A stretch of 64,000 nucleotides of DNA from Flaccisagitta enflata (Eukaryota). Location: assembly GCA_965153355.1 (NCBI GenBank), contig OZ231126.1, forward strand, positions 47,058,001-47,122,000, in the 5' to 3' direction. Every line of letters starts with the position of its first letter. Position 1 is the stretch's first letter. This document shows, in pieces, positions 37,387 through 62,895 of the stretch. The position numbers and the translations under genes are program-made. The notes under the pieces are model-generated. The model was not told where the DNA came from. It worked only from the letters and a program-made list of their open reading frames with translations, and made no database searches.

Positions 37387-38496
37387 TCATTTATGCTGGC
37401 CTCCGTACGGATCGGCGTTGTAAAGTTCAAACTGTTTCGGCGGCGCCGGCAACATTTGTTTGTCATACATATGGTGCATAACGTCTTGTACATGACGATG
37501 ATAGTTGATTTCCTTGAGCGTAGCGACACCGGCGTAGCGTTTAAGCCAAAAGGCGGGAGCGGCGAAAATGACGCCCATCACACCGCCGACAAGGCCGCCG
37601 ATGAGGCAAGCGCGAGGCCCTAACATGATGCGATTATTAAACCCGGCAAAGGCGGCGCCGGTTACCCAATGCCACCATTTCTCCTCCCCATCGACGACGT
37701 CCAGAGCGATGGCGACGCCTGACGTCACCATCATAAACCCAGTCAGCGGCAACGCGTAATTGAAACCGTTTTTGACGCCCGTGAAGAATAAATAATCGGT
37801 TCTTTTGCGGTTGGCCCCCATCGGCGACGTGTATTTCGTCGCGAGATTGAGCTGCAAGAATTTTGTGCGGGCGGCTTTTTGACCCTTTTTCCATCCGACG
37901 AAGAGTCCAACGGCGAAAGCGGTACACGTAAAGTCGTAAAATATGCGTAATTCCGTAGGAAATACCCCCGTCATGGGATTCCGGGTGACGGCGGCGCGAA
38001 GACGCTCCCGCGGCGTTTCATCCTCCTGACGTCGACGAGCTTCTTCCAGTATGAACTGATAGAGATCAGTGTCCAACGTCTCGTCGTAGGGACCTTTGGG
38101 TACTGGAGTCTCCAATTCCGTCGCCGAGGGCGTCTTGATCAACGCGGAGGAATCGTCGTCGGCGGTGGCGGCCTCTTCCGGCGAAGGATCACCGCCGCCG
38201 AAGTTAATTCGGAACAATCGTTTGACTTTTTCCGACAAAAAACTCGCCGTCGCTCCCAAATTGTGGAAGGTGTCCTCCGCATGGCGACTCACGATAGTCT
38301 CTGGTTGGGATGATAATGACGCGACGTCCGCGGGAGAAGTGACGGCATTTGGAGAGTCATCCGACACGCGGGAAAGGTTGCCGATTGATTGAGAATTGGA
38401 TCGATCGCCGGAGCAGTCTAGGGCTGAAGTTTGGTCATCATGGGGGTGATTATGCGATGAGGCTTTTACTACGGACCACAAGTGAGTTAGTGGCAT
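37387..38496 (-). CDS. TIMMDC1: TIMMDC1-like complex I assembly factor (Tim17/22/23 family), intronless, 369 aa
   Basis: Single ORF with ETPRERLR, glycine-rich TM segments, AARTKFLQLNLATKY..ANRKRTD..GFNYA and GAAFAG..LGPRACLIGGLVGGVMG, typical of TIMMDC1/140up. Confidence 0.85.
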   Translation of the reverse strand: MPLTHLWSVVKASSHNHPHDDQTSALDCSGDRSNSQSIGNLSRVSDDSPNAVTSPADVASLSSQPETIVSRHAEDTFHNLGATASFLSEKVKRLFRINFGGGDPSPEEAATADDDSSALIKTPSATELETPVPKGPYDETLDTDLYQFILEEARRRQEDETPRERLRAAVTRNPMTGVFPTELRIFYDFTCTAFAVGLFVGWKKGQKAARTKFLQLNLATKYTSPMGANRKRTDYLFFTGVKNGFNYALPLTGFMMVTSGVAIALDVVDGEEKWWHWVTGAAFAGFNNRIMLGPRACLIGGLVGGVMGVIFAAPAFWLKRYAGVATLKEINYHRHVQDVMHHMYDKQMLPAPPKQFELYNADPYGGQHK

Positions 38497-39266
38497 CGTG
38501 CCATATTCAAAAGAAGTTTTTTTATCAGCCTGAATGTTAACTTATTTCGAAAGCCTCACGCCTGATCTGCGGGTGGACAAAGGGGAAAAACAAAAACGTG
38601 AAAAGGGGAAATTTTTTTCAAATTAAAACGAAAAACGGCGATGAGGATTGAAGTAACTTAATATTAAGATTCGACGTGTTAGCTAGTTTTTTTTTTTGTA
38701 GAGGATATGATCAAAGCGACGTGTACTAATGTACTAAATAAGATGTATATACGAAAGTAAAGACGGAAATCGAATATAGACACGACGGACTATAATCCAT
38801 ACGGTTGATATAACGATTGAACACGAAAAAAATTAGAAATTTCTAAGCCTAAAACAGATGGAATATGATAAGAAAATTCATTTATAAAGTGCTTTTTTTA
38901 TAAACATGCGATTTCTTGCTCGCCAAGTCTTGACGTAAGACTGATATTTTGCACTCGGAGGAAATATTTTTCTTCTACCTACGAAATTGCACACATGTTG
39001 ACAATTGTCTTATGGTAGTCATATGGGTATATGGGTTGTCGATATCTATAAACCCTTTTGAATCGTGTGAACCGATTGGCAAAACATGATGAATCGATTA
39101 TGAAAGAAGAAAATTGTTTTCCAATGATCGTTAGGATTCTATGGGGACTTGCAAGCATGTATACTTATTTGTCTTAGTAATACATTTCCTATTAGCCAGT
39201 TAATTTTGCCAATTCGGCATGAGGACCCTGTCCCTCATAACGATGCGAGGCCACAACGGTCCCAAG

Positions 39267-44500: not shown

Positions 44501-47500
44501 AAATTTCAAAAAAATTTAGTAGTTGAAGATGATGACAGTAGATGAAGACAGTAGTTGAATGAATGAATGAATTTTATTTTGAAACATGGAATTACAAATA
44601 CGAGTAAATGTAAGACTGCTTCACGGATAGCCCATGAAAGTCTAGTAATGTGACTTTTTTCCAAAGGGGTCCGCGATAATAAAAATTAAAATTCATAAGT
44701 TAAAATAAGAATAAAATCGTAAGATGGTAAAAAGCCGAAATCATATACAGGTAAAAATCCGTCCAACAGAATCCGTAAAATCAGTCATACTGAGAAATCA
44801 AAAACTCTTTTAGTCTCTTCTTAAAAACTCGAAATTCACCAATACTTTTGATATTGGTTGGAAGACTGTTCCAATGCTTGATTGACGCAAAAGAAAAACT
44901 ACTTTGGGACCGAGATAGATCACGAGACAGAACAAAGTTGTACTCGCTTCCACGTGTGTTGTGAGAATGAGCAGCAGATATCGATGTGAAATTAGGGAGC
45001 AAGTATTTAGGAGCAAGTTTGTTTCGAATGCGAAAAATATGCATCATTTGAAAGAATTTAACCCGATCCGGAATGTTCAGCCAGGACAATTCTCAATGGT
45101 TTTTGCAATCAACATGTGCCCTGTGGTCCCAGCCGTTTATGAAACGGACCATTTTTCGTTGAACTACATTAAGCCTTTCCTTCAAGACCGCCGATAAACC
45201 AGAATACCAGGAACTGCAACAGTAGTCTACGTATGGCTGAATAAGCGCAGAATATAGGGTCTGCCTACTTTTCTTGTCTAACAACTGAGACTGGCGATAA
45301 AGAAAAGCCAGTCTTCCTGCGCAGACTTTCATCAAATTCCCCACATGGGCAGAACCGTTTACATTTTCGTCGAGTAAAACACCAAGATATTTTACAGTAA
45401 ACTTGCGCTCAACAGGCATCCCATCACAGAAAACCCGAAAATCCACCCCTTTCAATCTTCTCTTTGAACCAAAGAGCAATGATTCCGTTTTACCAACGTG
45501 AAGGGATAGCCTGTTGTCCACAAGCCATTTTTTACAGCTTGAAAGTTCAATGCTAAGGCGATCAGAAATTATTTTAGCATCACGATGCGCAAAAAGAAGT
45601 GCTGAGTCATCCGCGTAAAGAGAGAGTCTGCATGATAGGCTAATGTTCATGTCATTTATGTATATTAAAAACAACAAGGGACCTAAAATGCTACCTTGTG
45701 GCACTCCACAGGTGACAGGCAAAAACTCAGATCTCGAACCCTTAACATCAACACACTGACGCCGATTTTGTAGATAGGAATCAAACCAGGTTGTGGAAGA
45801 AATACCAATAGATTTAAGTTTTTCACAGAGGATAGCGTGATCAACCGTATCAAATGCCTTCTGCAAATCAATGAGTACCATACCGACAAAATTACCTTTA
45901 CTCAATTCATCCTTAATGAAATCTGAAAGGCCAATCAAACACGAGTCAGTGGAATAGCCACCGCGAAAACCTGATTGATTCTCGAAAAGTAGTCCTCGCT
46001 TTTCTAAATATTCACTAAGTTGTGAGTGTACAGCACGCTCGAGAATTTTCGAAAGAACACTTAAAATACTGACAGGCCTGTAATTGCCTGGATCAAGCGT
46101 CGAACCTTTTTTAAAGAGAGGAATAACTTTCGCCTCCTTGAAAGCAGTTGGAACGGTTTCGGTAGTAATGGAAATATTAACAATGTGGGCAACTGGCCCA
46201 ATTATGCAATCCGCGCCATCATGCAGAAATAGAGAAGATATATCATCCAGTCCAACTGCTTTCCTGGTATTCAGAGATGAAAGCTCTTTCCGTATAAAAT
46301 GAGAAGAGACAGGAGACAGGCAGAAATTAGAGCATAAGCCGATTCTATGTGAATAAAAACTCTTGAAAATAGTGGCAGCCGTATTAAAAACTCCAAGAGG
46401 ATTTGGCAGTTTAGAAACAAGTTTCGAAGCAACCGAAGTGTAGAAGGTGTTAAAAATCTGAGCAACACATAATGAATTAAACTTCTTTTCGCCATTTTGC
46501 TCCAAGACTATAGATGATGAGCCAGCAACTTTTTTACTAAAGCCAAGAGACTTCAAGTGGTTCCAAAGCTTCCCCGAATTACCCCTATTCCTTTCAACCC
46601 CATTCTTGAAAAAACATTCCTTAGCCAACTTGATGTCTCTTTGAACTTTATTCCGTACCTGAAAATACTCCTTATATAAAACATCATTCGACCGGTCTTT
46701 CCTAAAGCGAGAAAAAAGCCTATTCCGTTCCTTAATACCCGAAAGAATGTGGGAATTCATCCATGGATTCAACTTGTTTCGGACTCGAATTTCACGTAAA
46801 GGCGCAACTGTGTCAATTACTGAGCGAAAGAGACGATTGAATTCTAGAAGACAAAAATCTACGTCACTAGAATTTAAGACCGATGACCAATTAATTCTAC
46901 TTAAAGCAGCCGTAAAAGACGCCTTAGAATAGTTTTTAAAGGACCGTACAAATCTGACATTTTGACATGAGAAAACTTCCTTTGCACAACTTCTCGAACT
47001 GAAAGTCACCATATGATCACTGAAACCCTCCGGGATCACCCCACTTTCACTAATCAGATCGCTAACATTCGTAAATATGTGATCAATAAGAGAAGACGAT
47101 GTGGAAGTAATCCTAGTAGGTTCAGTGATCAATTGGTCGCAACCGAAAAAATCAAGAATCTCTTTGAACTTATCCAACAGAGGAGAACGAACTTGTAAGA
47201 AATCAATATTTAGATCACCCAATACATGAAACTCAGTTCCAGGGCTAATTTTAGAAAGGCATAACTCCAACTTAGATAGAAACCCATTATCATTGGGTGG
47301 CCGGTATATAGAGCATACAAGTATACCTTTAGTCCGAGGAAGCAGAAGCTCTATCCAAGTGGCTTCTAGATCGTCGACGGAAAGATCTGGTCGTGGGTTG
47401 AAGGCAATATTGTCGCGAATGAACATTGCGACACCGCCGCCGTTACGATTTCGATCATGCCGAACAATATTGAAGCCAGGAATATGTACCTCGCCATCAC

Positions 47501-50500
47501 CAACCGAGGAATCAAGCCATGACTCAGAGACCGCGAAAACAGATGCCTTAGTCCGTGAGAGCAGAAGTCGAATTTCTGGTAGTTTGGGAATAAGAGAACG
47601 CACATTTGCGTGAAGAAAGTGGAGGCCTTTAGACGTGAGGACGCTAGGAATAGGACAGGATAGAAACGACGATGAAAGAGAAGTAGAGGAAGGAGCCGAG
47701 GAAGAGTTAGCAGTGGCGTCGGCAACGTGTTCGTCGACACCCGTATCATTTGCGAAAGGAAGCGAAGAGAGGCTGCAACGGTCGCAGACAAATGCCAAAT
47801 CAACCCCGTCACGCACGCACTCGTTGTACTTGGTGAGAGAGACAGAGAGAGAACATCGTATGTGCGTCCATTTAAGGCAGTAATCGCACTCAACAGCCTT
47901 ACTCGCCTTGGTTACGCCCTTCGCGCAAACGACACAAGGATGAGCAACATTTCGCGTCCTTTTCCCATCTGAACTCGTAGACGACGTAGACGGTCGCGGT
48001 CCCGGATGAAGATTGACGTCGCCGGAAAGAAGAAGCAGTTGACGTTGATGCTGTGTATGTTGCTGGTGCTGTGTATGTTGCTGGTGCTGTTGTTGATGCT
48101 GTTGTTGATGCTGTAGTTGATGTAGCTGTTGATGATGTAGATGTAGATGCGGCGTAGTAAAAGAGGGAGAACAGACGCTCAAATGATTAAGATGTATGAT
48201 GAGCGAACAGGTGAGAAATGAAAGGAGCGAGGAAGACATTGTCGACTCGGATATTGCCGCCGAAGCTAAACGAGAAATTGAAGCCAAAATTCCTTTGCCG
48301 CACTTGAAAAGTTTTGAAAACCACGTGCACGATGCCCGGTCGTCGCCCACGTCGGGTTAGTTTAAAGTCTTTTTACATTTTCCGCGTAGAATCGCCATAG
48401 GCCCAACATCGGGGACGTCACCATCAAAACCCTGACAGCTTGTCTTCCAATGTTTCTTCAACCTCAAATTTGACTAATCCAGTTTGCTTTTTCAATCTTC
48501 GGTCACGTCACCCTCCGACGCCCAAAATGGAGAACTTAAAAAAACAATTCCAGTATTCAATGTTTCCAGACTTTTCTTATTCTATCGCCGCATCTGATTG
48601 AACTTAATCCATTTTTATCTTCGACTATTCCACCGGAGACACATTTGTAGTCGTCTTAGAGTTGATTATTGAAATTTTTAAATTAAGCAAATAAAAGAAT
48701 GATGACAGTAGTTGAAGACGATGACAGTATTTGAAGATAATACCAGTAGTTGAAGATGATGACAGTAGTTGAAGATGAATCTTGAAATCCATGATGGCAA
48801 ACCTAAAGAAAAATCAGAATGTAATAAATGAGCAAGTAAAAGAATTCCAACTCCAATCCTCTATAGAAATTGCCAAAGTCCTAGAAACATATTACTACAT
48901 TAATAGGCTAATATCTTATAAACCAGACTTCAGATATAATTCAAATTTTGCAAGGGCACTTCAATTAATATCCTTTACTTGTATACCAAATTAAAAAAGA
49001 ATTCACATAACTTTGCTACCCTTTGCCTATGTAAACTGTGAATTATGGCGATTATTTTTGTAGTTTTTTGTGATTATTTGTCAATTTCGCCTATTTTGCT
49101 TTCCTCTCTGTTGATCATATTTGCGCCTGTTATTATCTCTGATTTTCTTCTTAGTTGATCAGTTATAATGTCTTGCGTGGTTCAAGCCTGGTCATGTTCC
49201 GGAGGCGAAATGCTACCTGGTGAGTCTTGGTGTGTATAAGAGGCTGGTTGGGCTGTACTATAGTTATATAGTTTGCTAGATTCCCTTGGTTAGTCAGTTA
49301 TTAGGTTTGTGGTAGGTCTAATCCTTCCTTCTCCCCTTGCCCCTTTCTTCTTTCTTTATCTGCAGCGTTTTGATACGACTTTTTACCTAGAAGACTCGAT
49401 GACGTGATTTTGGTGACGAATTGGCGCGATGATGTCAAACGATTGACTTGATTATGTACAACGAATTGGCGTGACGATGTGCAACGAGAAAGATCGGATA
49501 TGCTGAACATTTCGATGAGACTTGCTGAACATTCGATGGGATTTGCTGAACATTTCGACGAGATTCAAGGAACATTGACGTTGACGTTGGCGTGACGTCA
49601 TTTCCGGTGCGACTTCATCTTGGCGTTGGCGTGACTGCGGCTTTGGCGGCGTCATTCTTCCAGCCATCACTTGGGATTCACGGTACGAGCTTTTGGTGAT
49701 TGACCGTGTCATATGCAGTTTTCTACAGTATCAAAACGGACCTGGACATAACCAGTAATTTTTGTACCCAACCACAACCATGAGCACACAACCACAACAG
49801 GACGCAGGAGAAGGCGGGGAGCGACCAGTTTGGGACAGGCGGATCATCTCCAGAGTAAGGAGGGAGCTGAAACAAGAATACCTACTCGTGGAATCCGCCG
49901 TCAGTTTTGCTTCCGTCAGCTCCGAGCGGTCCGTGCTCATACGGTTTAACGATACAGCGAACAAGTTTTGTGACTTGGTGAACGCAAAGATCGCAGAGTA
50001 CAACAACTGTGTGATAGTAACAAAGGTCGCAGAAAGTGCCGCAAATGATTTGATGGTAGACATACACAGCTACAGGACGAAACTCGACACAACTCTCCAG
50101 CCGAGATATGTGGAGGAGGAGGGGGATGGCCACAGGGATGTGTCGTTCGAGGCCGGATCGCCGATAGAAAAAAAGGCGACGCCGGTCGAATTGAGAGCAA
50201 CGGATGGTGCGGCAGCGGCGCAGAACGGAAAAGACGCCGCACTAGACAAAACGATGCGAATCTCGGACAGCGACCTGAGCGAGGAGGAGGAGGAGGAAGA
50301 GAAGGAGACCGAAGCCACAGAGGAAAACGGCAGGGGGGGAGGCAACGCCGATCAAAACGGCGTAAGCGACGCCCCAGCCAGCGGCATATTCGGCAGGTTA
50401 ACGAATCTGTTTAAAAACTCAACCCCGACGGACGCTGTACCGGCCGTGAACGTGATTCCACCAACACCGGCAGACAAAGAAAGATCGCATACAAGAAGCG

Positions 50501-53500
50501 CCGCATCCATCGCGAGATCGCTCCAAGCGAGAGAAGAAAGAGATAAGAAGAAACAAGAAGAGGAGGAGCAGATGGAGGCGATGAGGAAGCAGAGTGAGGC
50601 AGAGGAGGTAGAGGCAATGCGGAAGGTGGAGGAGATAAGGAAGCAGAGAACATTAAACGAGAAACTACACGCTGCAAAGATGGACGGATTGGAAGCAATC
50701 CATGATAAGCAGCAACAAATCATCGAGGATGAGGAAAGTGAGGCGGCAGCGGAAGAGGCGATGAAAGACCTGGAAAAAACAGTGGAAGGGGCGAAAGGGG
50801 GTAAAGAAGACAATAATGCAGCAGTTGAGAGATGGGCAAAAGGAAATGTGCGCGAGCCCATTGCAAAAATTCTGCCGAAAAAAGTCGAGGTAGCGGCGCC
50901 GCCGAAAGGAAAAGCGGCGGTGAAGCTAGACCTCAAAAACATTAAAGTCACACCCCCAAAGGCAAAATCCCTTCCCGCGATCACCCCCATTATCCGGAAA
51001 GGCCGCATGAACTCTACATCGGAGAAAAAAAGGAGTAAAGAGGCGAGAAGGCTTTCGGAGGAAAAAGAAAAAGCGGAAAAGCGAGCGAGAGATTTGGAGG
51101 CTCAACTGAAACAGGTTCAAGAAACCGCGCGCCAAATGGAAAGCGCACTGAATGCGGTGGAGGAGGATGAGGAGGAGGAGGAAGATGACCTGGAGAAGAT
51201 GCCGTTATCTCCATCATACACAGAAAACAGTGGGTTTTGCGAAATGGTGAAAGTGCAAACCCAGATGTACGCGATGTCGCAACTAAAAGAGGCCCGTCCT
51301 GAGAAAAAATTCGCCGCATGTGGAAAAAAAGTGGATTTTTCAAAACATATGCTCGAATTTGAAACGGCGCTCGGGATAGTAGGCCTAACGGAAACGATGA
51401 AATTGAACGAGTTTCATCACTACTTTGAAGGGTCTGCGCTGCAGCTGATTGAAGCGGAGTTGAGAAGAAAAAACGATGCAGAAAAAGCAGTGTCTGATGC
51501 CATATCAAAACTAAATCGCAAATTTGGCACGAGAAAAGAAACGGCTTTGGAGATGATGGACGAGCTGTTGCAAGGGAAGCAGATTGGCGAGAAGGACCAC
51601 GGCGGGTTGCTGTCATTTTATTGTAGGTTGACTAGCATCCATACTTTGGCTTGCGACACCAATCGTGGAACAGAATTCGAGAACAAACTGGTCGTCGACT
51701 CGATCCTCAGCAAGAAGATTCCCCATCTGTCAGCTAAGTGGGCAAAGCGGTCTGTAAAAGACGCAATGGCCGGGGGAAAGGGATTGAATTTTGCGGCTTT
51801 TTTGAGTTTTCTTGATGAAGAACATGCGATTGCAGAGTATTGTTACAAAAACTCAGGTCAAGCGCAACAGATCAAGCCGATTGGCGCGAAAATAGCGGCG
51901 ACGACGGCAACAACCACCAAGAAGGAAGGAGCGACGGCAGCAGCAGCAACACCGCCCAAACCAGCAGGCGGATGCGGGCGCTGCGGTGGCCAACATCGAC
52001 TTCCGGCGTGTGACATTTTCAAAGGTCTCGCGGTGGGAGACAGAAGAAAATTTTGTATGAACACGCGCAGCTGCTATCAATGCTTGGAGGCGGGGCATAT
52101 GGCGAGAAATTGCCAATCACCCGACAAGTGCCCAATTTGCGGATTGGGGCATCACGAGCTGCTTCATCCGGTGGACGAGACGGCGCCGGCGCCACCTGGC
52201 GAAACAAATAATACGGCATGACTAGCGACGCCGAGACAAAACTCGATATTTAAGGTCGGCGGGGATGATGGAGCATGGAGACTAATTGTGCCGTTGTATG
52301 TGACGAACACGAGTGGAGACAAAATCGCCACATTTGCGCTCCTTGATGGAGGCGCAAATCGCCACGTAGTGTCAGAGGCGATTTGCGCAGATCTTGGTAT
52401 TGAAGGCAGGGATGTAAATATGAAAATTACAACTCTGGACAAAACCGTTGAAGGAGTGAGAAAAGTGGCAGATGTGTCTGTTGTGGGGACAAATGGTTTT
52501 GAGTTGGACCTGAAAAACGCGATCTTCGGCGAAATCATTGCGACGGAAGGCGATAGACCGCCGGAAAATGTCGACGTGGAAAATATGGACCATCTGAGCG
52601 ACATTGATTTTCCCGCGTTTCCCGAAAATATCGCCGGAGGAAAAAAGATTGGCGTTATCATCGGGGCCGAACATGCCAGAATTTGGAGTACGGGCGAAAG
52701 ACGCGTCGGCGACGCGTCACTTCCGGTGGCGCTGGAGACGGGGTTCGGCTTTTGTTTGATCGGCCCAAAGAAGAACATTGACTCGCATTGCTTTGTTTGT
52801 AACCATGTTTCTTTTCAGAGTTGCCCCACAGATACTGAAAAAGACATGAAAAAGTGTTTTGCGAGTGAATTTGAGAGAATCAAAGGAGATGATGAAACAA
52901 TGTCGTTGAAGGATAAGCATGCTGTGCGTCAATTGGAGGAAGGTATCATTTGGGACTCCCTCGCCGAGAGATACCGCGCGCCACTTCCGCATGTCGTCAG
53001 CCGGGAGGCCACCGCCGCCAAAATCAATAAAGTGGATTCGGGCGGTATGGCATTAGACCGACTGTGGAGGACGGGAAGGCAGATGCGAAAAGATCCGGAG
53101 AGACGACGGATAACGTTCGAAACAATGGCGAAATTCGATGAGAAAGGTAGAGTGGTAGAGGTGGATCCGGCGGAGCATGAAGCCACGCCGACAGACCGAC
53201 CAAAATGGACGATTCCGATTCACGTGACTGACAAGCCCGGAAAACCCGGGCAAGTCAGGATCTGTCACGATTGTCGGGCTTCTGTGGGTGGAATCTGCCT
53301 AAATGACTTTCTATTGGACGGCCCCCAACTTGCATGCGACATACGCGGTGTACTGATGCGATTTCGCGACGAGGGCGAAGTAGCGGTAGGCGCCGATATT
53401 AAGGACTTCTTTCATGAAGTGTATATCGCTAAGGAGGACGAGGCCGCCTTTAGATACTGGTGGTTCAAATCGGAAGATATGGACGATGTTCAGCTAAAGG

Positions 53501-56500
53501 GCTTTTTGGGACATGTTTTTGGTGCAAAAAGTTCAAATTTTGTCGCGATCTTCACAAAACGCTTCCACGTTAACAACAAAGCCGCTGAATATGGCGCCTT
53601 GGTTGTTCAAGCCGCGAATCGTAATTTTTATGTCGATGACCTCCTAAAGTCGTTGAGGAACACAAAAATCGCGAAGGAATTCCGGATAAATATGACGGCG
53701 GCGATGAAAGACGGTGGCTTCACTCTCTGCAAATGGCGCTCGTCCAAACCGGAAGTGCTTGATGGAATGGAAGCGGCGCCGGCCGAAAAAGACTTTTGCG
53801 GGCCGGCTGCCGACGCGGACGATATTGGGAAATTGTTAGGGATGCAATATTCGTTTTCTGCCGATGCTTTTTTTTACATTCCAGATCAGGAAAAGCAAAA
53901 TTTAAAAGTGGAAACGAAGCGGCAAATGCTGCAGGTGATTGCATCATTTTTTGACCCGTTGGGTTTCTTGGACCCTTTTGTGATATGGGCGAGACTCATT
54001 CTGCAGAAAGTGATGAAATTGCCAATTGGATGGGACGAGAAAACGATTGAGACGAATCTTCTTGACGAGTTCGCGAGGTGGCAGAGCGATTTTGTGTATC
54101 TTAATGGCTTCAAAATCTGTCGTTGGACGGCGACTTTGGCGACGCAGGATGCAAAACGGCAGCTGATGGTATTCTCGGACGCAAGTAGCGAAGGGTACGG
54201 CGTCGTTATATACGTCAGACGCGCAACGCCGGACGGCGTCATCCACATATCCATCGTCTGCTCGAAGGCGCACGTAGTGCCGGTAAAAGACGCTGAAGCC
54301 GGCCACCACGATTCCATCCCGAGGTTGGAACTGCAAGCGGCGAGATTGGCGGCTAGGATGCGAGTCAACGTGGAAAAAGAGACAGGGAGTTATGATAATG
54401 TGGTAATGTGGACTGATTCTGAATGTGTGATCAAACAGTTGCATGATACCGAAACTTGTTTCAAAGTCTATTTTTCCAATCGCCTTTCAGAAATTCAGGC
54501 GTTGACGAGCGTTGATGAGTGGCGGTGGGTTCCGAGCGGTGACAACCCTGCGGATGACTGCTCCCACGGCCTTCTCGCCAGCGATCCGAAGTGGGCACGT
54601 TTTTTGAATGGTCCGGACTTTTTGCGGAACCGGGAAGAAGATTGGCCGTCAAAGCAGATAGCGACGGAACCATTCCCAGCGCACATTTTGGCGACGACGG
54701 TGACAACGCCGGAAGTTACTCAATGCTCATGGGTGACAAAAATATCGTCGAGTGTCGCGGCATGGAAGGCGAAGGTACGGCGGATCGCGTGGGTGAAGAA
54801 AACTCTCCTCCAGGCGGTGTATCGGCGCCGCGGGGAGACCGGCGCCGTCGAGGCACGTTTGACGACGCCGGATTTACGGGATGCCGAGTTGCTGCTGCTG
54901 AAGGATATACAGCGGCGACACTTTACGAAGGAATTAGCGGCGTTGGCAGTGCAGCCGGCGAAGCCATCAAAGCGCCCGTCTGTGCAACCGAGTTCGACGG
55001 TAGCGGCGTTGAATCCCTTCATCGACGACGCCGGCATTTTAAGATGCAGAGGAAGACTGGAAAAGGCGGATTATCTGCCTTTTGATGCGAAGCATCCGAT
55101 CATTTTGCCCCATGGTGACGACGCTGTACTGGAACTGGTTCGCGGCATGCATGAACGATGCCTCCATGCCGGCGTTGAACAAATTTTGGGGGAATCGCGG
55201 CGCCGTTTTTGGATAACAAAAGGGCGCCGGCTTGTGACTCGTGTTGTAAGGGCGTGTGTGGGATGCCAAAAACTCTTTAAATCGCCTCAATCGCAGCAGA
55301 TGGCGCCACTTCCGTCGGAGAGAACTTTGGTTTGTAGGCCTTTCGAGAACACCGGCGTGGATTGCTTCGGCGCGATCAAGTGTAAGATCGTCGGGCGTGC
55401 ATTTCATGAAGTAAATGTTGCGTTGTTCACTTGTATGGCGACAAGGGCCGTGCATTTCGAAGTTTTGCGGACGATGGAGGCGTCCAGTTTCATCGACGCT
55501 CTGCAACGTTTCCGCGCCCGGAGACCGGCGGTCCGCTGCCTGTTTTCGGATCAAGGCACTAATTTCACCGCCGCCGAGAAGGAGATCGCGGCTGAAGTGG
55601 CTTCTTGGAATGCGTCGTCGGCGAGTGATCTGCATCTGCTGGGGCTGGAGTGGAAATTTAATCCTCCAACGTCTCCGCATCGTGGCGGCGTTTGGGAGCG
55701 GATGGTGAGATCAGCGAAAAAACACTTATCATTCGTGCTCCAACGTGATAATTTGAACATCGAGACTCTGACGACTGTGTTGGCCCAGGCGGAATTGACA
55801 ATGAACTCGAGGCCGATTACTTATGTGTCTGATGAGCCGGGGGTTCATGCCTTGCGGCCGATTGATTTTTTGTGTCCGGGGGTTTTTGCATCGTCGGACT
55901 GTGATATTCTGCCCCCTACCCCACCTGGAGGCGATAATTTGCGGTATAGTTGGCGCCAGTCTAGGGCGCTGGTGGACGAGTTTTGGAAGCGGTGGTCACG
56001 TGATTATCTGTCAGCACTCCAGGCGAGACCGAAGTGGAGATCATCGGAACCAAATCTGCAAGTCGGCGATGTGGTGTTGTTGGTGGATGATCAGTGTCGA
56101 CGGGGTGATTGGCGATGTGGAGTCGTCATGGAGACTGATGGAGGCGAATTGGTGAGGACGGTGACGGTTAAGACTGCTGCCGGCAAAACTTTTTCGCGTG
56201 ATAGAACGAGAGTGGTATGTTTGGAATTGGACCCAATGCGGGCTGAGGAGTAGTTCTTCCTCTTTGTACAGTATTTTTATTTTAGCGTATGCTTTTCGTG
56301 ATTGTTTTTCCGTTGCGCTTTGGGTTTAATTATTTGGAGGATTTTTTGTTGATTGACGCGTTTTGCTTTTTTTGTCGACGATGATTTTGCCCCATCTCTT
56401 TTCTTTAAAGATTATCATTGACGTTTTTCAGCTGATTTTGCGTTATTTCGACTTATTTTTTCTTTTTGATTTTTCGCTTGGCGCTATGGATTGGTTACTT

Positions 56501-57978
56501 AAATGTGGATTTTGTATATGTCATTTTGGTGCAATTTGATGTATTGATTTGTTCGCCTTGAATATTATTTTGCTGTTGCTGTTTCTTTTTGCCTTTCTAT
56601 CTGTGTCCCTCTTCTTTCTTTTAGTTCCCTAGTGGTTATTTAGTGTTAGTGCATTTTAGTTTCTCAGTTGGTGGAAGTTGGTGCTTGTGGAAGTGTCGTA
56701 TTTTTTCTGTGGTATTTTTTCGTGGTAGTGATAATGTCGTCGGTGGATGCTGGAGTGGAAGTGGAGATGGAGGTGGGTGATGGTGCTGGTGCAGCCGGTA
56801 CCGGTGTGGGTGTGGGTAGCCCGCGGATGAGGGGTGGTAGTGCTGGGAGTTTCGTGGGTGGTGCTCTGGAGGAAGACCAGGAAGGGGTGGATGCGGTGGT
56901 GGGTGATGAGGAAGGGGTGAATGCGGTGGTGGGTGATGAGGAGGGGGGTGAGGTACCTCCGGTGCCCTATGCGGATTTTCTGCAGCAGGTACCGGAGGGG
57001 CGGGCGTTGAGGAGGTTGGCATGGATGAAGGACGGGGTGGTGTTGGGCGGCGGAAGGGTCACAGCGGCCGACTTGATGGTGGGCAGCGGGCCGGTGGCTG
57101 TTCCGCCGTGGATGAACTCTTGGGTTGAAATGGACAATGTGGATAGGGATCTTTGTGGATTGCGCCAAGTGGCAGTGGCCTTCCACAAAGTTGCCCACCC
57201 GTCTCTCCCCCACCTGTGTGTGCTGCAGGTGTTGCGGCAGGATCATCTGCCGAACTTTTATTTGATGGTGGATGGACATGATCCGAAGGAATTGTTGGAG
57301 ATTCCGTCTTATAACTTTGATGGAAAGAACGTCATCTTTTGGGGCGAGGAGCCGGGGATGCGTTTTGCGGTGACGACGGCGGTGGAGGAGGAGGGCTTCT
57401 GCGAATATTGGAGCTGGCATGATGAGGAGACTCATCACTCGCCGAAATGGCAGGCTTGGCCGAAGTCGGGGAGGCCGGGTTGTCAGGCCAACGCATTTGG
57501 GCCTTTAGCGCCGGTCTTGCAGTTTTGGGCGGAAGTGGAACAGGTGGTGGCGGCGGCATCGGCGGCACCTACTCCGGCGTGGATGCGGCCGGCATTGAAA
57601 CGGATCGTCGCGGCTTGGAAGGAGAAGTATGACTCTGTTTTGAAGAAGCCGGAGTATGTGCCGGAGGAGTTCTTTGGGGCAAAGCGGCGCGGCGGCCAGG
57701 GGAAGGGGATGTTGGCGGCGCAGGAGTTGTTGGCAGATGCAATGCGGGGGATGCATTTTACGGAGCCAGAGGCGGCCAGTGGGGCATTGCCTGCCGGGGA
57801 GGCAATGCCGCCTCTAGTGCCGGCGGAGGAAGTGGTGGTGGCGGCGCCGGAGGTGCCGGCGGCGGTGGCAGCGTCGTCGGCGGCGGTGGCGGCGTCATCA
57901 GCGGCGGCGGCGGCGACGGTGTCTTCGGTGGTGAGGGCTGTGGTCGGTGGGGGTGGCGTTCCTCCGGCTGCGGTTGAT

Positions 57979-58012
<34 letters not shown>

Positions 58013-61000
58013 AGGCGGAGAAGCAGAGGAAGAAAACGAAGAACAAAGAGAGGCACGATAGGGCGAAGATGGCAAGGGAGGCGAAACGCGAGGAGGAGGC
58101 TCGTGCCAAGGAGGAGGAGGAGCGGCGGCGCTGGGAGGACCAACAGCGGCGTTGGGAGGAGGAGCAGCGCCGGGTTGAGGAGGAAGGGCGCCGGGTGGAG
58201 GAAGAGCGGCGCCGGTTGGAGGAGGAGCGGCGCCGGCGGGAGGAAGTGGCTGCGGCGGAAGTTGCGCGGAAGGAGGAAGAGCTGCGCCGTGCGAGGGAGG
58301 CGTTGGCAGGATGCGGCGGCGGTGGAGGTGCCCCTGGCAGGCCCTCATCGTCGTCATCACAGTGGCGTGAGAGGGGCCATTGTGGCTTTCGTGCCCCTCT
58401 TCCTCCGTCGTCTTCAGTCTCGTCGGGGCGGGTCCAGCCGCCGTCTCGGGCGCTGGACGCGTCGTTTGCGTCATCGTCGTCGGCGATGTCGCAGGAGGAA
58501 GTGGACTTGGCGGTGGCGCAGGCATACGCGGCGGGTGCGCGCCGCGAGCGGGAGGCGAGGCGAGAGAGGGAGCAAGGGGTGCGCGAGCGCAGCGACGACC
58601 GTGCTTCAGCCCCTTCAGCAACATCAACGCCACGGGCTGAGAGGCCGTCTCGGCCGCAGTCCCGCGGCGGTTATGGCGGTGGTGGTAGTGGTCGTCATGG
58701 ATGGCGCGGCGGTTCGGCGTCGGGCCGGCGGCGTTAGAAGCATGCCGCCGTGTCCGTCCGTCCGTCCGTCTGCTCGCCCGTTACTTAGGTAGGTTTTGCC
58801 TGCGTCTTCCCTGTGTTTTTTTTTGAGGGGGGACGGTTGATTAGGTTTGAAGTATGATTCAAACGGGGGGATTGTGAATTATGGCGATTATTTTTGTAGT
58901 TTTTTGTGATTATTTGTCAATTTCGCCTATTTTGCTTTCCTCTCTGTTGATCATATTTGCGCCTGTTATTATCTCTGATTTTCTTCTTAGTTGATCAGTT
59001 ATAATGTCTTGCGTGGTTCAAGCCTGGTCATGGTCCGGAGGCGAAATGCTACCTGGTGAGTTTTGGTGTCTATAAGAGGCTTGTTGGGCTGTACTGTAGT
59101 TATATAGTTTGCTAGATTCCTTTGGTTAGTCAGTTATTAGGTTTGTGGTAGGTCTAATCCTTCCTTCTCCCCTTGCCCCTTTCTTCTTTCTTTTATCTGC
59201 AGCGTTTTGATACGACTTTTTACCTAGAAGACTCGATGACGTGATTTTGGTGACGAATTGGCGCGATGATGTCAAACGATTGACTTGATTATGTACAACG
59301 AATTGGCGTGACGATGTGCAACGAGAAAGATCGGATATGCTGAACATTTCGATGAGACTTGCTGAACATTCGATGGGATTTGCTGAACATTTCGACGAGA
59401 TTCTATGAACATTGACGTTGGCGTTGGCGTGACGTCATTTCCGGTGCGACTTCATCTTGGCGTTGGCGTGATTGCGGCTTTGGCGGCGTCATTCTTCCGG
59501 CCATCACTTGGAATTCACGGTACGAGCTTTTGGTGATTGACCGTGTCATATGCAGTTTTCTACATAAACTGCCTAAGTCATAGTAACATATCACTACATA
59601 AATAAGCTAATATCTCATAAAGCAGATTTCAGATTTAATTCAAATTTTACAGGGCTTATTTATTTACTACCCTCTACTTGCATACCAAATTAGAAAAAAA
59701 TTCACATACCTTTACTACCCTTTGCCTATGTAAATTGCCCAAGTCCTAGCAACATACTATTACATAAATAAACTAATATCTCATAAACCAGACTTCAGAT
59801 TTAATTCGAATTTTGCAGGGGTTGTTTATTTACTACCCTCTACTTGTTTACCAAATTAAAAAAAAATTCATAAACCTTTACTACCCTCTACCTATGTAAA
59901 ATGCTTAAGTCCCAGCTAAATATTACTACAAAAATAATAGGCAAAGGGTAGTAAAAGTTAATGAATTTTTTTGAAAATTGGTGCACAAGCTCCTATTGAC
60001 CTACAAACAACACCAGCAAAGTTTCATAAAATTCTGAAGTCTGGTTCCAAAAATATGAGAGGGTTTTAAACAGACAGACAGACGGACAGACAGACTACAC
60101 ATCACTGCTACTTCATAGTCACCGACGAAAGCTGTTCGTCGGGGACAAAAAAAAAGGAACCGGTAGTACCTATAGTGAACATCCAGCCAAAATTAAGATT
60201 GAGCGTAAGTTCAAGAATATTCAGCTATACAAAATTATCATTAACAAGTCCGATCAGGCAACGATGCGTCCTGACTTTGTCTCTGCTTGTATTGACTTTG
60301 GCGCTCAACTCGGATGGTCAGAAAGGTGAAAAGACATAGAACCATAAGAGGCTCTCAAAACATCCTAACGACTGTTTGACTTGATGCGTGACACCCTCGC
60401 GGCCGAAAATTGCCAAAAACTACGATTTTCAAGGTGTAACTGACGGAGGGACGGACCAACCGACCGATGGAGGGACGGACCAACCGACCGACGGACGGAT
60501 GGACGGACAGACAGAACCTCATAGATATGCAAGGACGCATCTAAAAACGAACTTGCAATGACTTTGCATGAATGGAGTACACAAAATTGAAAACAAATTT
60601 GTGTTCACGTTTCACACCTTACCAAATGACGCTCTCACCTGTGGGGAAACGGGCATCTGCCGCCCCTCATGCATTGTCCCATCTGGAATTCTTTGCATAC
60701 AAACATGCTCTTGATGCCGCCCTTGCACTTGACGCATCTCGATTTCGGGTATGGACCGAGACAATCGATACACACGTGACGTTTCTCGCATTTCACGCCA
60801 TTGTCGCATCCCTTGGCGTGATTAAACGCTTCGCAAATTTCTTTAACGTAACGCCAGCCTTCCTCATCGACCTCGGTGTCCTCGGGTTCCGGTTCGGACG
60901 TCTCGCCCTTGGCGGCTTTCGCTTCCTCTTCTTTGATCTTCTGCGCGCAGCTAAGCAGCGTGGAGATGTTGAGGTCGTACAGCGTCAATGCGTCCATCAT

Positions 61001-62397: not shown

Positions 62398-62895
62398 CTG
62401 CGAGAATTATTCAAAACAAGGCCAACACCTTACAGTCGCGTGCGGTTGTTAAGACCAAAAGACCAAAGATGACTTATAATGACTTTAAACAAATCAAAAT
62501 AACTTAAAATGATGTAGAACGACAAAAAGAAGCTAAGCCTTACGGACCGACAGACAGACAGACAGAGTGGGTCATAGAGTCGCGTGCACGCGTCTAAAAA
62601 TCTTCATTAAAATATACAGATTAATGAGACAATCAATGTAGAGCGCGTCACCGCGCGTGTAATCATTTTGTGAGTATGCAGTATGTAGAATATGTAGTAA
62701 TGATCACCTTGGCAAGCGCAAATTTTGGCGGCGTTTTTTCCAAGACAAATAGCGCAGTGGTGTCCGACGTCACACTTTTTCTCGCAAGTGCCCAGGTTGA
62801 ACTAAAATGAATAATTATAAAAGAAAATGAGCACTGTAATCTGACTATAATTATATATATTTAATTGAAACATGTAATCAGTAGAATTCAAAGCC

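Follow-up and report, generated by a model that had tools for sequence, protein, structure and literature searches.

The window analysed here is a 64,000-nt stretch of contig OZ231126.1 (assembly GCA_965153355.1, positions 47,058,001 to 47,122,000 of the forward strand), and all coordinates below are positions within it. At 49037-59564 on the plus strand lies a full-length retrotransposon bounded by two long terminal repeats (LTRs). An 11-nt word inside its 5′ LTR is complementary to the sequence directly past that LTR and may act as a self-primer of reverse transcription. The 5′ end of this word abuts a splice-acceptor-like site, and we tentatively propose that it is set by transcription initiation.

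Both LTRs have TG...CA ends. They measure 691 and 692 nt and are about 98% identical, with 13 differences between 49038-49727 and 58874-59564, and the 3′ LTR repeats the donor-like, TATA/initiator and acceptor-like words together with the 11-mer (copy at 59203-13). The pol region matches the profiles of Peptidase_A17 (Pao) (PF05380, E = 4e-36), Integrase_H2C2 (PF17921, E = 1e-7) and DUF5641 (PF18701, E = 1e-22). The element is therefore a member of BEL/Pao, with which its TG...CA LTR pair and short target-site duplication agree.

Table 1. Features of the retrotransposon (positions in the window)
Feature	Position	Strand	Remark
Target-site duplication TAAAC (5 bp)	49032..49036 and 59565-59569	.	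read at both element flanks
5′ LTR	49037..49727	+	direct repeat with 3′ LTR, TG...CA
Donor-like CTG|GTGAGT	49220..49225	+	sole GTRAG word of the LTR
TATAAG (TATA of the preliminary description)	49235..49240	+
TATATAG	49265..49271	+	31 nt before initiator A
Initiator-like TCAGTT	49294..49299	+	predicted start A49296, 70 nt before the 11-mer
Branch-like CTAAT	49318..49322	+	43 nt before AG
Pyrimidine tract	49322..49361	+	38/40 nt pyrimidine
CAG of acceptor-like site	49363..49365	+	exon would begin at 49366
Putative self-primer, 11 nt, CGTTTTGATAC	49366..49376	+	inside 5′ LTR
Primer-binding site (PBS), GTATCAAAACG	49728..49738	+	directly after 5′ LTR
Leader, PBS to gag ATG, 41 nt	49739..49779	+	single copy in window
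gag-like ORF	49780..52221	+	ATG at 49780, ends with UGA (52219-21), in frame with pol
pol	52222..56253	+	profile matches: Peptidase_A17 (Pao), Integrase_H2C2, DUF5641
Second acceptor-like region, before ORF3	56590..56632	+	exon starts 56625 and 56633
ORF3, 667 aa	56734..58737	+	no family match
Polypurine-tract-like AAACGGGGGGAT	58861..58872	+	adjoins 3′ LTR
3′ LTR	58873..59564	+	direct repeat with 5′ LTR, TG...CA

A word in the LTR is complementary to the primer-binding site

The word CGTTTTGATAC is the exact reverse complement (11/11) of the first 11 nt past the 5′ LTR, which form the putative primer-binding site (PBS). On the plus strand of the window, its reverse complement was found at one further place only, namely at 49728-38. 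The bases flanking the 11-mer and the PBS do not pair on either side, so that the complementarity is exactly 11 nt long. Of 20,000 shuffled LTRs, 0.23% contained a perfect match of 11 nt or more to the reverse complement of a word that begins no more than 6 nt past the LTR.

The PBS starts with GTA and not with TGG, a TGG lying at 49743, 15 nt past the LTR, and it is therefore a poor fit to the 3′ end of a tRNA. A scan of the window for tRNAs and other Rfam families returned no match. Priming by a tRNA was considered and rejected, given the lack of a tRNA in the window and of an initial TGG in the PBS.

For an RNA starting at 49366, the predicted minimum-energy fold as well as the centroid fold pairs nt 1-11 with the PBS; when the RNA is taken to start at 49296, the pairing of primer and PBS is absent from the fold. 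In the mechanism that we propose, the 11 nt at 49366-76 would fold back onto the PBS, as in the yeast elements Tf1 and Tf2, would be cut off by RNase H and would then be extended. The site past the LTR would be recopied from the primer in each cycle, and the point at which the complementarity stops (49366) should for this reason mark the 5′ end of the replicating RNA. Taking all models that include self-priming together, the 11-mer is likely to be a self-primer of the Tf1 type.

Promoter words predict an RNA start 70 nt upstream

Between the donor-like and the branch-like word, the LTR holds a TATATAG followed by an initiator-like TCAGTT. Among 20,000 resampled LTRs, 135 (0.7%) contained a pair of this kind, and TCAKTY has been described as an initiator consensus common in LTRs (PMC3601003). 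From these promoter words, transcription is predicted to begin 70 nt before the 11-mer. The sole other canonically spaced TATA/initiator pair of the window lies at 62828-62859 on the minus strand.

A second initiator-like TCAGTT is found at 49161-66, and no TATA was detected before 49163. The TATAAG at 49235, which the preliminary description had taken for the TATA, is less likely to be functionally relevant; one variant copy from an RNA library carries a T>C change in it (3′ LTR position 59073).

The putative primer directly follows a splice-acceptor-like site

The preliminary description had also drawn attention to splice-like words leading up to the primer, and its reading of the letters was borne out. 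The GTGAGT expected near 49220 is present at 49220-25, with the TATAAG downstream of it at 49235-40, and the branch-like CTAAT expected near 49318 is present at 49318-22. The pyrimidine tract of about 40 nt spans exactly 40 nt (49322-61) with only two purines (g49339 and a49358). The TGCAG said to end at 49365 is part of a CTGCAG ending there, and the 11-mer occupies 49366-76 right after the acceptor-like CAG.

A YAG was counted as acceptor-like if pyrimidines made up at least 85% of the preceding 20 nt. Over the two strands together (128,000 positions) there are 33 such sites, and each LTR copy has exactly one, at the start of the primer. The full intron-like pattern (GTRAGT, YTRAY 15-55 nt before the AG, pyrimidine tract and YAG) occurs in the two LTR copies and in only one other place in the window. 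Among 5,000 Markov resamples of the LTR, 0.32% contained the full pattern and 6.7% contained some acceptor-like site. These tests were framed after the pattern had been seen, and the raw figures thus overstate its significance; even so, the coincidence of acceptor and primer is not trivial.

The 6.7% figure bears on the view that RNA starts at 49296 and nothing is removed from it. The 11-mer would then act as an internal fold-back primer, or its pairing would serve circularisation or packaging, and the splice-like words would have no function. The TATA/initiator pair fits this view, as does the abundance of CT-rich low-complexity DNA in the genome (families D1 and others). However, it would leave the exact stop of complementarity at 49366 unexplained, whereas both a start and a splice at 49366 would account for that boundary. 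Moreover, on the schemes known for Tf1 and retroviruses a primer of 81 nt would be copied into the plus strand and would block the second transfer, and the fold predicted from 49296 loses the pairing of primer and PBS. We regard this explanation as very unlikely.

The donor, branch word, polypyrimidine tract and AG also conform to the consensus of a spliceosomal cis-intron over 49220-49365 (146 nt). If this intron worked, its contact with the 11-mer would be coincidental, and splicing would be expected in read-through transcripts, in 3′ untranslated regions or in RNAs initiated further upstream, such as at the initiator-like word at 49161-66. The rarity of the full pattern (the two LTRs and one other place in 128 kb; 0.32% of resamples) and the second initiator-like word speak in its favour, and the element seems to splice elsewhere, since acceptor-like sites precede ORF3. 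On the other hand, the best promoter (49265/49296) would lie inside the intron, and the upstream initiator-like word has no TATA. Splicing between the GTGAGT and the acceptor of the 3′ LTR would delete the promoter from the progeny, yet both LTRs keep it. The last bases of the upstream exon (up to 49219) show no match to the sequence past the PBS (GACCTGG...) or to the complement of that sequence, which argues against the cis-intron as the source of the primer's end. Taken together, these points make a working cis-intron improbable.

Possible trans-splicing of a host leader

The idea put forward in the preliminary description was that a spliced leader (SL) is added at the primer after an outron of about 100 nt. 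In the version examined here, RNA would start at A49296, the first 70 nt would form the outron, and a host SL would be joined to C49366, so that the complementarity ends at the AG. An outron-like layout is indeed present: a branch-like word, the 40-nt pyrimidine tract and a CAG abut the primer, the predicted start lies upstream (only one other such promoter pair occurs in the window), and no GTRAG donor occurs between 49296 and 49365. With a TATA/initiator pair 70 nt upstream and no donor in between, such a layout is plausible. Self-priming would cut off the leader-bearing piece before minus-strand transfer, leaving that step undisturbed.

Two further places in the window show comparable signals. 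A single-exon, TIMMDC1-like host gene (37387-38541, minus strand) has a similar long pyrimidine tract with GCAG about 70 nt before its ATG, and an acceptor-like site followed by a 109-nt leader without ATG precedes ORF3 of the element. The TIMMDC1-like protein has 99%- and 94%-identical counterparts on contigs of 1.7-1.8 kb, and its nearest clusters are animal, most commonly arthropod. The host thus looks like an animal, perhaps an arthropod, and is met in marine plankton RNA, and calanoid copepods trans-splice a 46-nt SL (PMC4664967).

Several observations weigh against a spliced leader at the primer. No SL gene was found in the window by a search with the calanoid SL, an Rfam scan and a check of a candidate 46-mer. 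With up to 3 mismatches allowed, the calanoid 46-nt SL was not detected in the window, and it shows no complementarity to the bases past the PBS (GACCTGG..., 49739 onward), which argues against that leader. A leader copied into the plus strand would form a tail that blocks the second transfer, unless its complement follows the PBS. The same acceptor in the 3′ LTR would endanger the full-length RNA. In addition, the genomic RNA of Cer1 is described as not trans-spliced in the part of the Cer1 study at hand (PMC3315495). We consider it unlikely that a leader is joined at C49366, and it is rather doubtful that the self-primer owes its 5′ boundary to host RNA processing, through removal of a 70-nt outron by SL trans-splicing.

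In the boldest form of this idea, the leader may itself be part of the primer, and 49739-79 may be the copied-back complement of the leader's 3′ end. A host SL ending in the reverse complement of 49739 onward would then be expected, and the element would use the host SL much as other elements use a host tRNA.

The 46-mer (48700-48655, minus strand), with which the preliminary description had suggested comparing a leader, did not stand up. It is present in a single copy, is followed by AC and not by GT, and was ruled out as an SL gene, being the 5′ edge of a long interspersed nuclear element (LINE) inserted in a minisatellite. The LINE lies on the minus strand, its open reading frame (45093-48356) encodes an EEP endonuclease and a reverse transcriptase, and the GATGACAGTAGTTGAAGAT minisatellite flanks it on both sides (44518-48790).

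RNA evidence and further LTR copies

RNA was represented by contigs of three marine metatranscriptomes, which held up to 21% of the element's sampled words, and by one raw-read run; these four runs were mapped over 48700-59900. The raw-read run (organism A) contributed five reads, one at 95-99% and four at 90-95% identity, and with such identities (90-99%) it represents a relative from another species or family and not this element. Contig depth was about 3-12 over the interior and the 3′ LTR and about 0 in the bins of the 5′ LTR.

With this thin coverage and a depth of about 0 over the 5′ LTR, no splice joint was found in the four runs, at 49366, 59203 or elsewhere. Likewise, among the loose ends listed, none lay at 49366 or 59203 and none carried a leader there, again at poor coverage; if anything, this would count against trans-splicing. 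One 591-nt contig is unspliced and reads continuously through the 3′ LTR (58920-59511), including its donor-like and acceptor-like words. The lack of joints and the retention of the intron in this contig count against the cis-intron. However, every model predicts that the 3′ LTR remains unspliced, and the 5′ LTR is hardly covered; the RNA therefore neither supports nor refutes splicing. Assembly into contigs also loses short tips and rare forms, and the satellite depth of about 1300 leaves room for carry-over of DNA.

Using the antisense reading frames of the LTR as protein queries, we found two further near-identical LTR copies (P0129 and P0131) and no diverged ones. At the amino-acid level, P0129 equals the 3′ LTR over 59129-59233, a stretch that includes the initiator, branch word, pyrimidine tract, CAG and 11-mer; compared with the antisense frame of the 5′ LTR, it shows seven residue differences and a frameshift in R-U5. 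P0131 has a different flank past the LTR end and is therefore another insertion. Across 49305-49404 (about 100 nt), the four LTR copies differ only by a one-base length change in a T run; we estimate that about four changes would be expected in copies this close, and the difference from the one seen is weak. The antisense frames themselves (49301-49730, minus strand), which had been called as the proteins P0129 and P0131 on ENA contigs, are probably gene-caller artefacts.

Transcription initiation as a possible source of the primer's 5′ end

We favour the reading that the 5′ end of the primer is made by transcription initiation at or next to CAG|C (49366), with 49296 as an alternative start, and give it a probability of about 0.4. 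In its favour are the exact 11-nt complement next to the LTR, with flanks that do not pair, the poor fit of the PBS to a tRNA, the pairing predicted for an RNA that begins at 49366, the use of SL1 in Cer1 on a spliced mRNA and not on the gag-pol RNA (PMC3315495), and the lack of joints at the site in the thinly covering RNA-library contigs. In addition, reverse transcription would carry any leader or upstream exon remaining on the primer over into plus-strand strong-stop DNA, and neither the upstream exon nor the calanoid SL matches what follows the PBS. On this reading, the pyrimidine tract would belong to the promoter-proximal DNA and be a 3′ splice site in appearance only, and the acceptor-like site would stay unused on the replicating RNA. 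Initiation at the TATA/initiator pair would yield a longer RNA that acts as messenger but is not used as template. Tf2, which has alternative starts, is the model for this: its self-primer is situated in R, and whether an RNA can be reverse-transcribed depends on the start site used (PMC5341516).

A number of findings weigh against initiation at 49366. No other acceptor-like site exists in the LTR, and this one ends precisely where the primer begins; the present reading has to ascribe that coincidence either to chance or to a hypothetical function in the promoter. Within the LTR, TATA and initiator words are canonically spaced at a single place, 70 nt further upstream; no TATA is present about 30 nt before 49366, and G/C at -1/+1 is an unfavourable context for RNA polymerase II. 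A search of the whole LTR (49037-49727) for 15 common poly(A) hexamers found none, and consequently R and the R/U5 border cannot be delimited from the sequence. Finally, the predicted fold of 49366-49790 is not more stable than those of shuffled sequences (z = 0.53).

The unexceptional fold would also suit the view that chance is at work throughout, with an unrecognised host RNA as the primer and both the 11-nt match and the splice-like words as coincidences. All of our tests were post hoc, and only four near-identical LTR copies were compared, which leaves more room for it. Nevertheless, an 11-nt match directly past the LTR is expected in only about 0.2% of cases, the PBS lacks the TGG of tRNA-primed elements, and three separate low-probability features fall within 150 nt. 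Pure coincidence thus appears highly improbable.

Coding regions and insertion site

A single UGA (52219-52221) followed by CUAG separates gag and pol, which share one frame. The pol proteins of 12 relatives (49-65% identity), encoded on ENA contigs of 5-10 kb, are of near-equal length and have the same start point. This layout suggests a conserved design of stop-codon read-through and not decay. The gag-like ORF matched no Pfam family, and we found no relatives of the element in viral and prokaryote sequence collections.

ORF3 likewise has no Pfam match; its product contains long Ala/Gly runs and a Glu/Arg-rich repeat (families D8 and D9). It is separated from pol by a T-rich spacer of about 480 nt (56254-56733) with pyrimidine-tract-AG sites at its end. 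A relative from a metagenome (locus L001, 60% identical), a 1197-nt contig that lacks an LTR and comprises only the end of pol, a T-rich spacer and the beginning of an ORF3-like gene, has a similar layout (spacer L001:440-921), with a polypyrimidine-TAG before the matching ATG. These signals suggest that the ORF3 messenger is spliced or trans-spliced. No convincing upstream donor was found for the acceptor-like sites before ORF3, the only candidates being 49220 in the LTR and 49855 in gag.

The host DNA around the insertion is a satellite of about 166 nt (family D5). In the marine metatranscriptome contigs, its flanking stretches (48860-49036 and 59565-59903) reached mean word depths of about 1300 and 620, compared with about 3-12 for the element. 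This deep signal reflects either a transcribed satellite or DNA carry-over.

Comparison with known systems

The element resembles Tf1 and Tf2 of Schizosaccharomyces pombe in having an 11-nt LTR word complementary to a site by the 5′ LTR and no tRNA-type PBS. The primer here follows a consensus 3′ splice site, and a TATA/initiator pair lies 70 nt upstream; to our knowledge, neither feature is known for Tf1. Tf1/sushi elements are chromoviruses of the Ty3/gypsy group, whereas the pol of this element is that of BEL/Pao, so it is not a member of their lineage and may only work like Tf1. Two accounts describe or predict self-priming in the Tf1/sushi group, in Tcn1 and in the copia lineage TAR (PMC6317226, PMC6934838). 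As for this element, self-priming of the TAR lineage (Houba and Osr-1, plant Ty1/copia) and of the Tcn1 clade was inferred from sequence alone, in lineages that do not belong to Tf1/sushi proper; unlike the present element, these are plant elements, and the excerpts at hand describe no link to splice signals (PMC6317226).

With respect to trans-splicing, only Cer1 of Caenorhabditis elegans (Ty3/gypsy) bears on the question in the portions of the literature on LTR retrotransposons that were available. Cer1 is similarly an LTR element of an SL-using animal, with a used SL acceptor and consensus splice sites. In contrast to what trans-splicing of the genomic RNA would entail here, its SL1 site is used on a spliced, subgenomic 2.4-kb mRNA and not on the 8-kb gag-pol RNA, and the part of the study at hand describes no link between SL1 and priming (PMC3315495). 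If the acceptor of the present element were used, host RNA processing and not initiation would decide which RNAs are copied; this would be a new kind of coupling between host and element and would shift the U3/R border by 70 nt. An unused acceptor would make the locus a useful warning that pyrimidine-rich DNA close to a promoter can imitate a 3′ splice site down to the single base.

The element shares with other BEL/Pao members (Semotivirus) the Pao peptidase, the integrase zinc domain, DUF5641, TG...CA LTRs and a 5-bp target duplication. As far as we know, described BEL/Pao members have PBSs complementary to tRNAs. This element differs in its PBS without an initial TGG, in the in-frame UGA between gag and pol and in its third ORF. 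Self-priming is not ascribed to BEL/Pao in the available parts of the literature on self-priming retrotransposons (PMC6317226, PMC5443660, PMC3601003, PMC5341516). Beyond Tf1 and Tf2, where it has been shown, it is predicted in a few lineages of Ty3/gypsy and Ty1/copia. A self-priming BEL/Pao element, if confirmed, would bring in the third superfamily of LTR retrotransposons, as well as animals.

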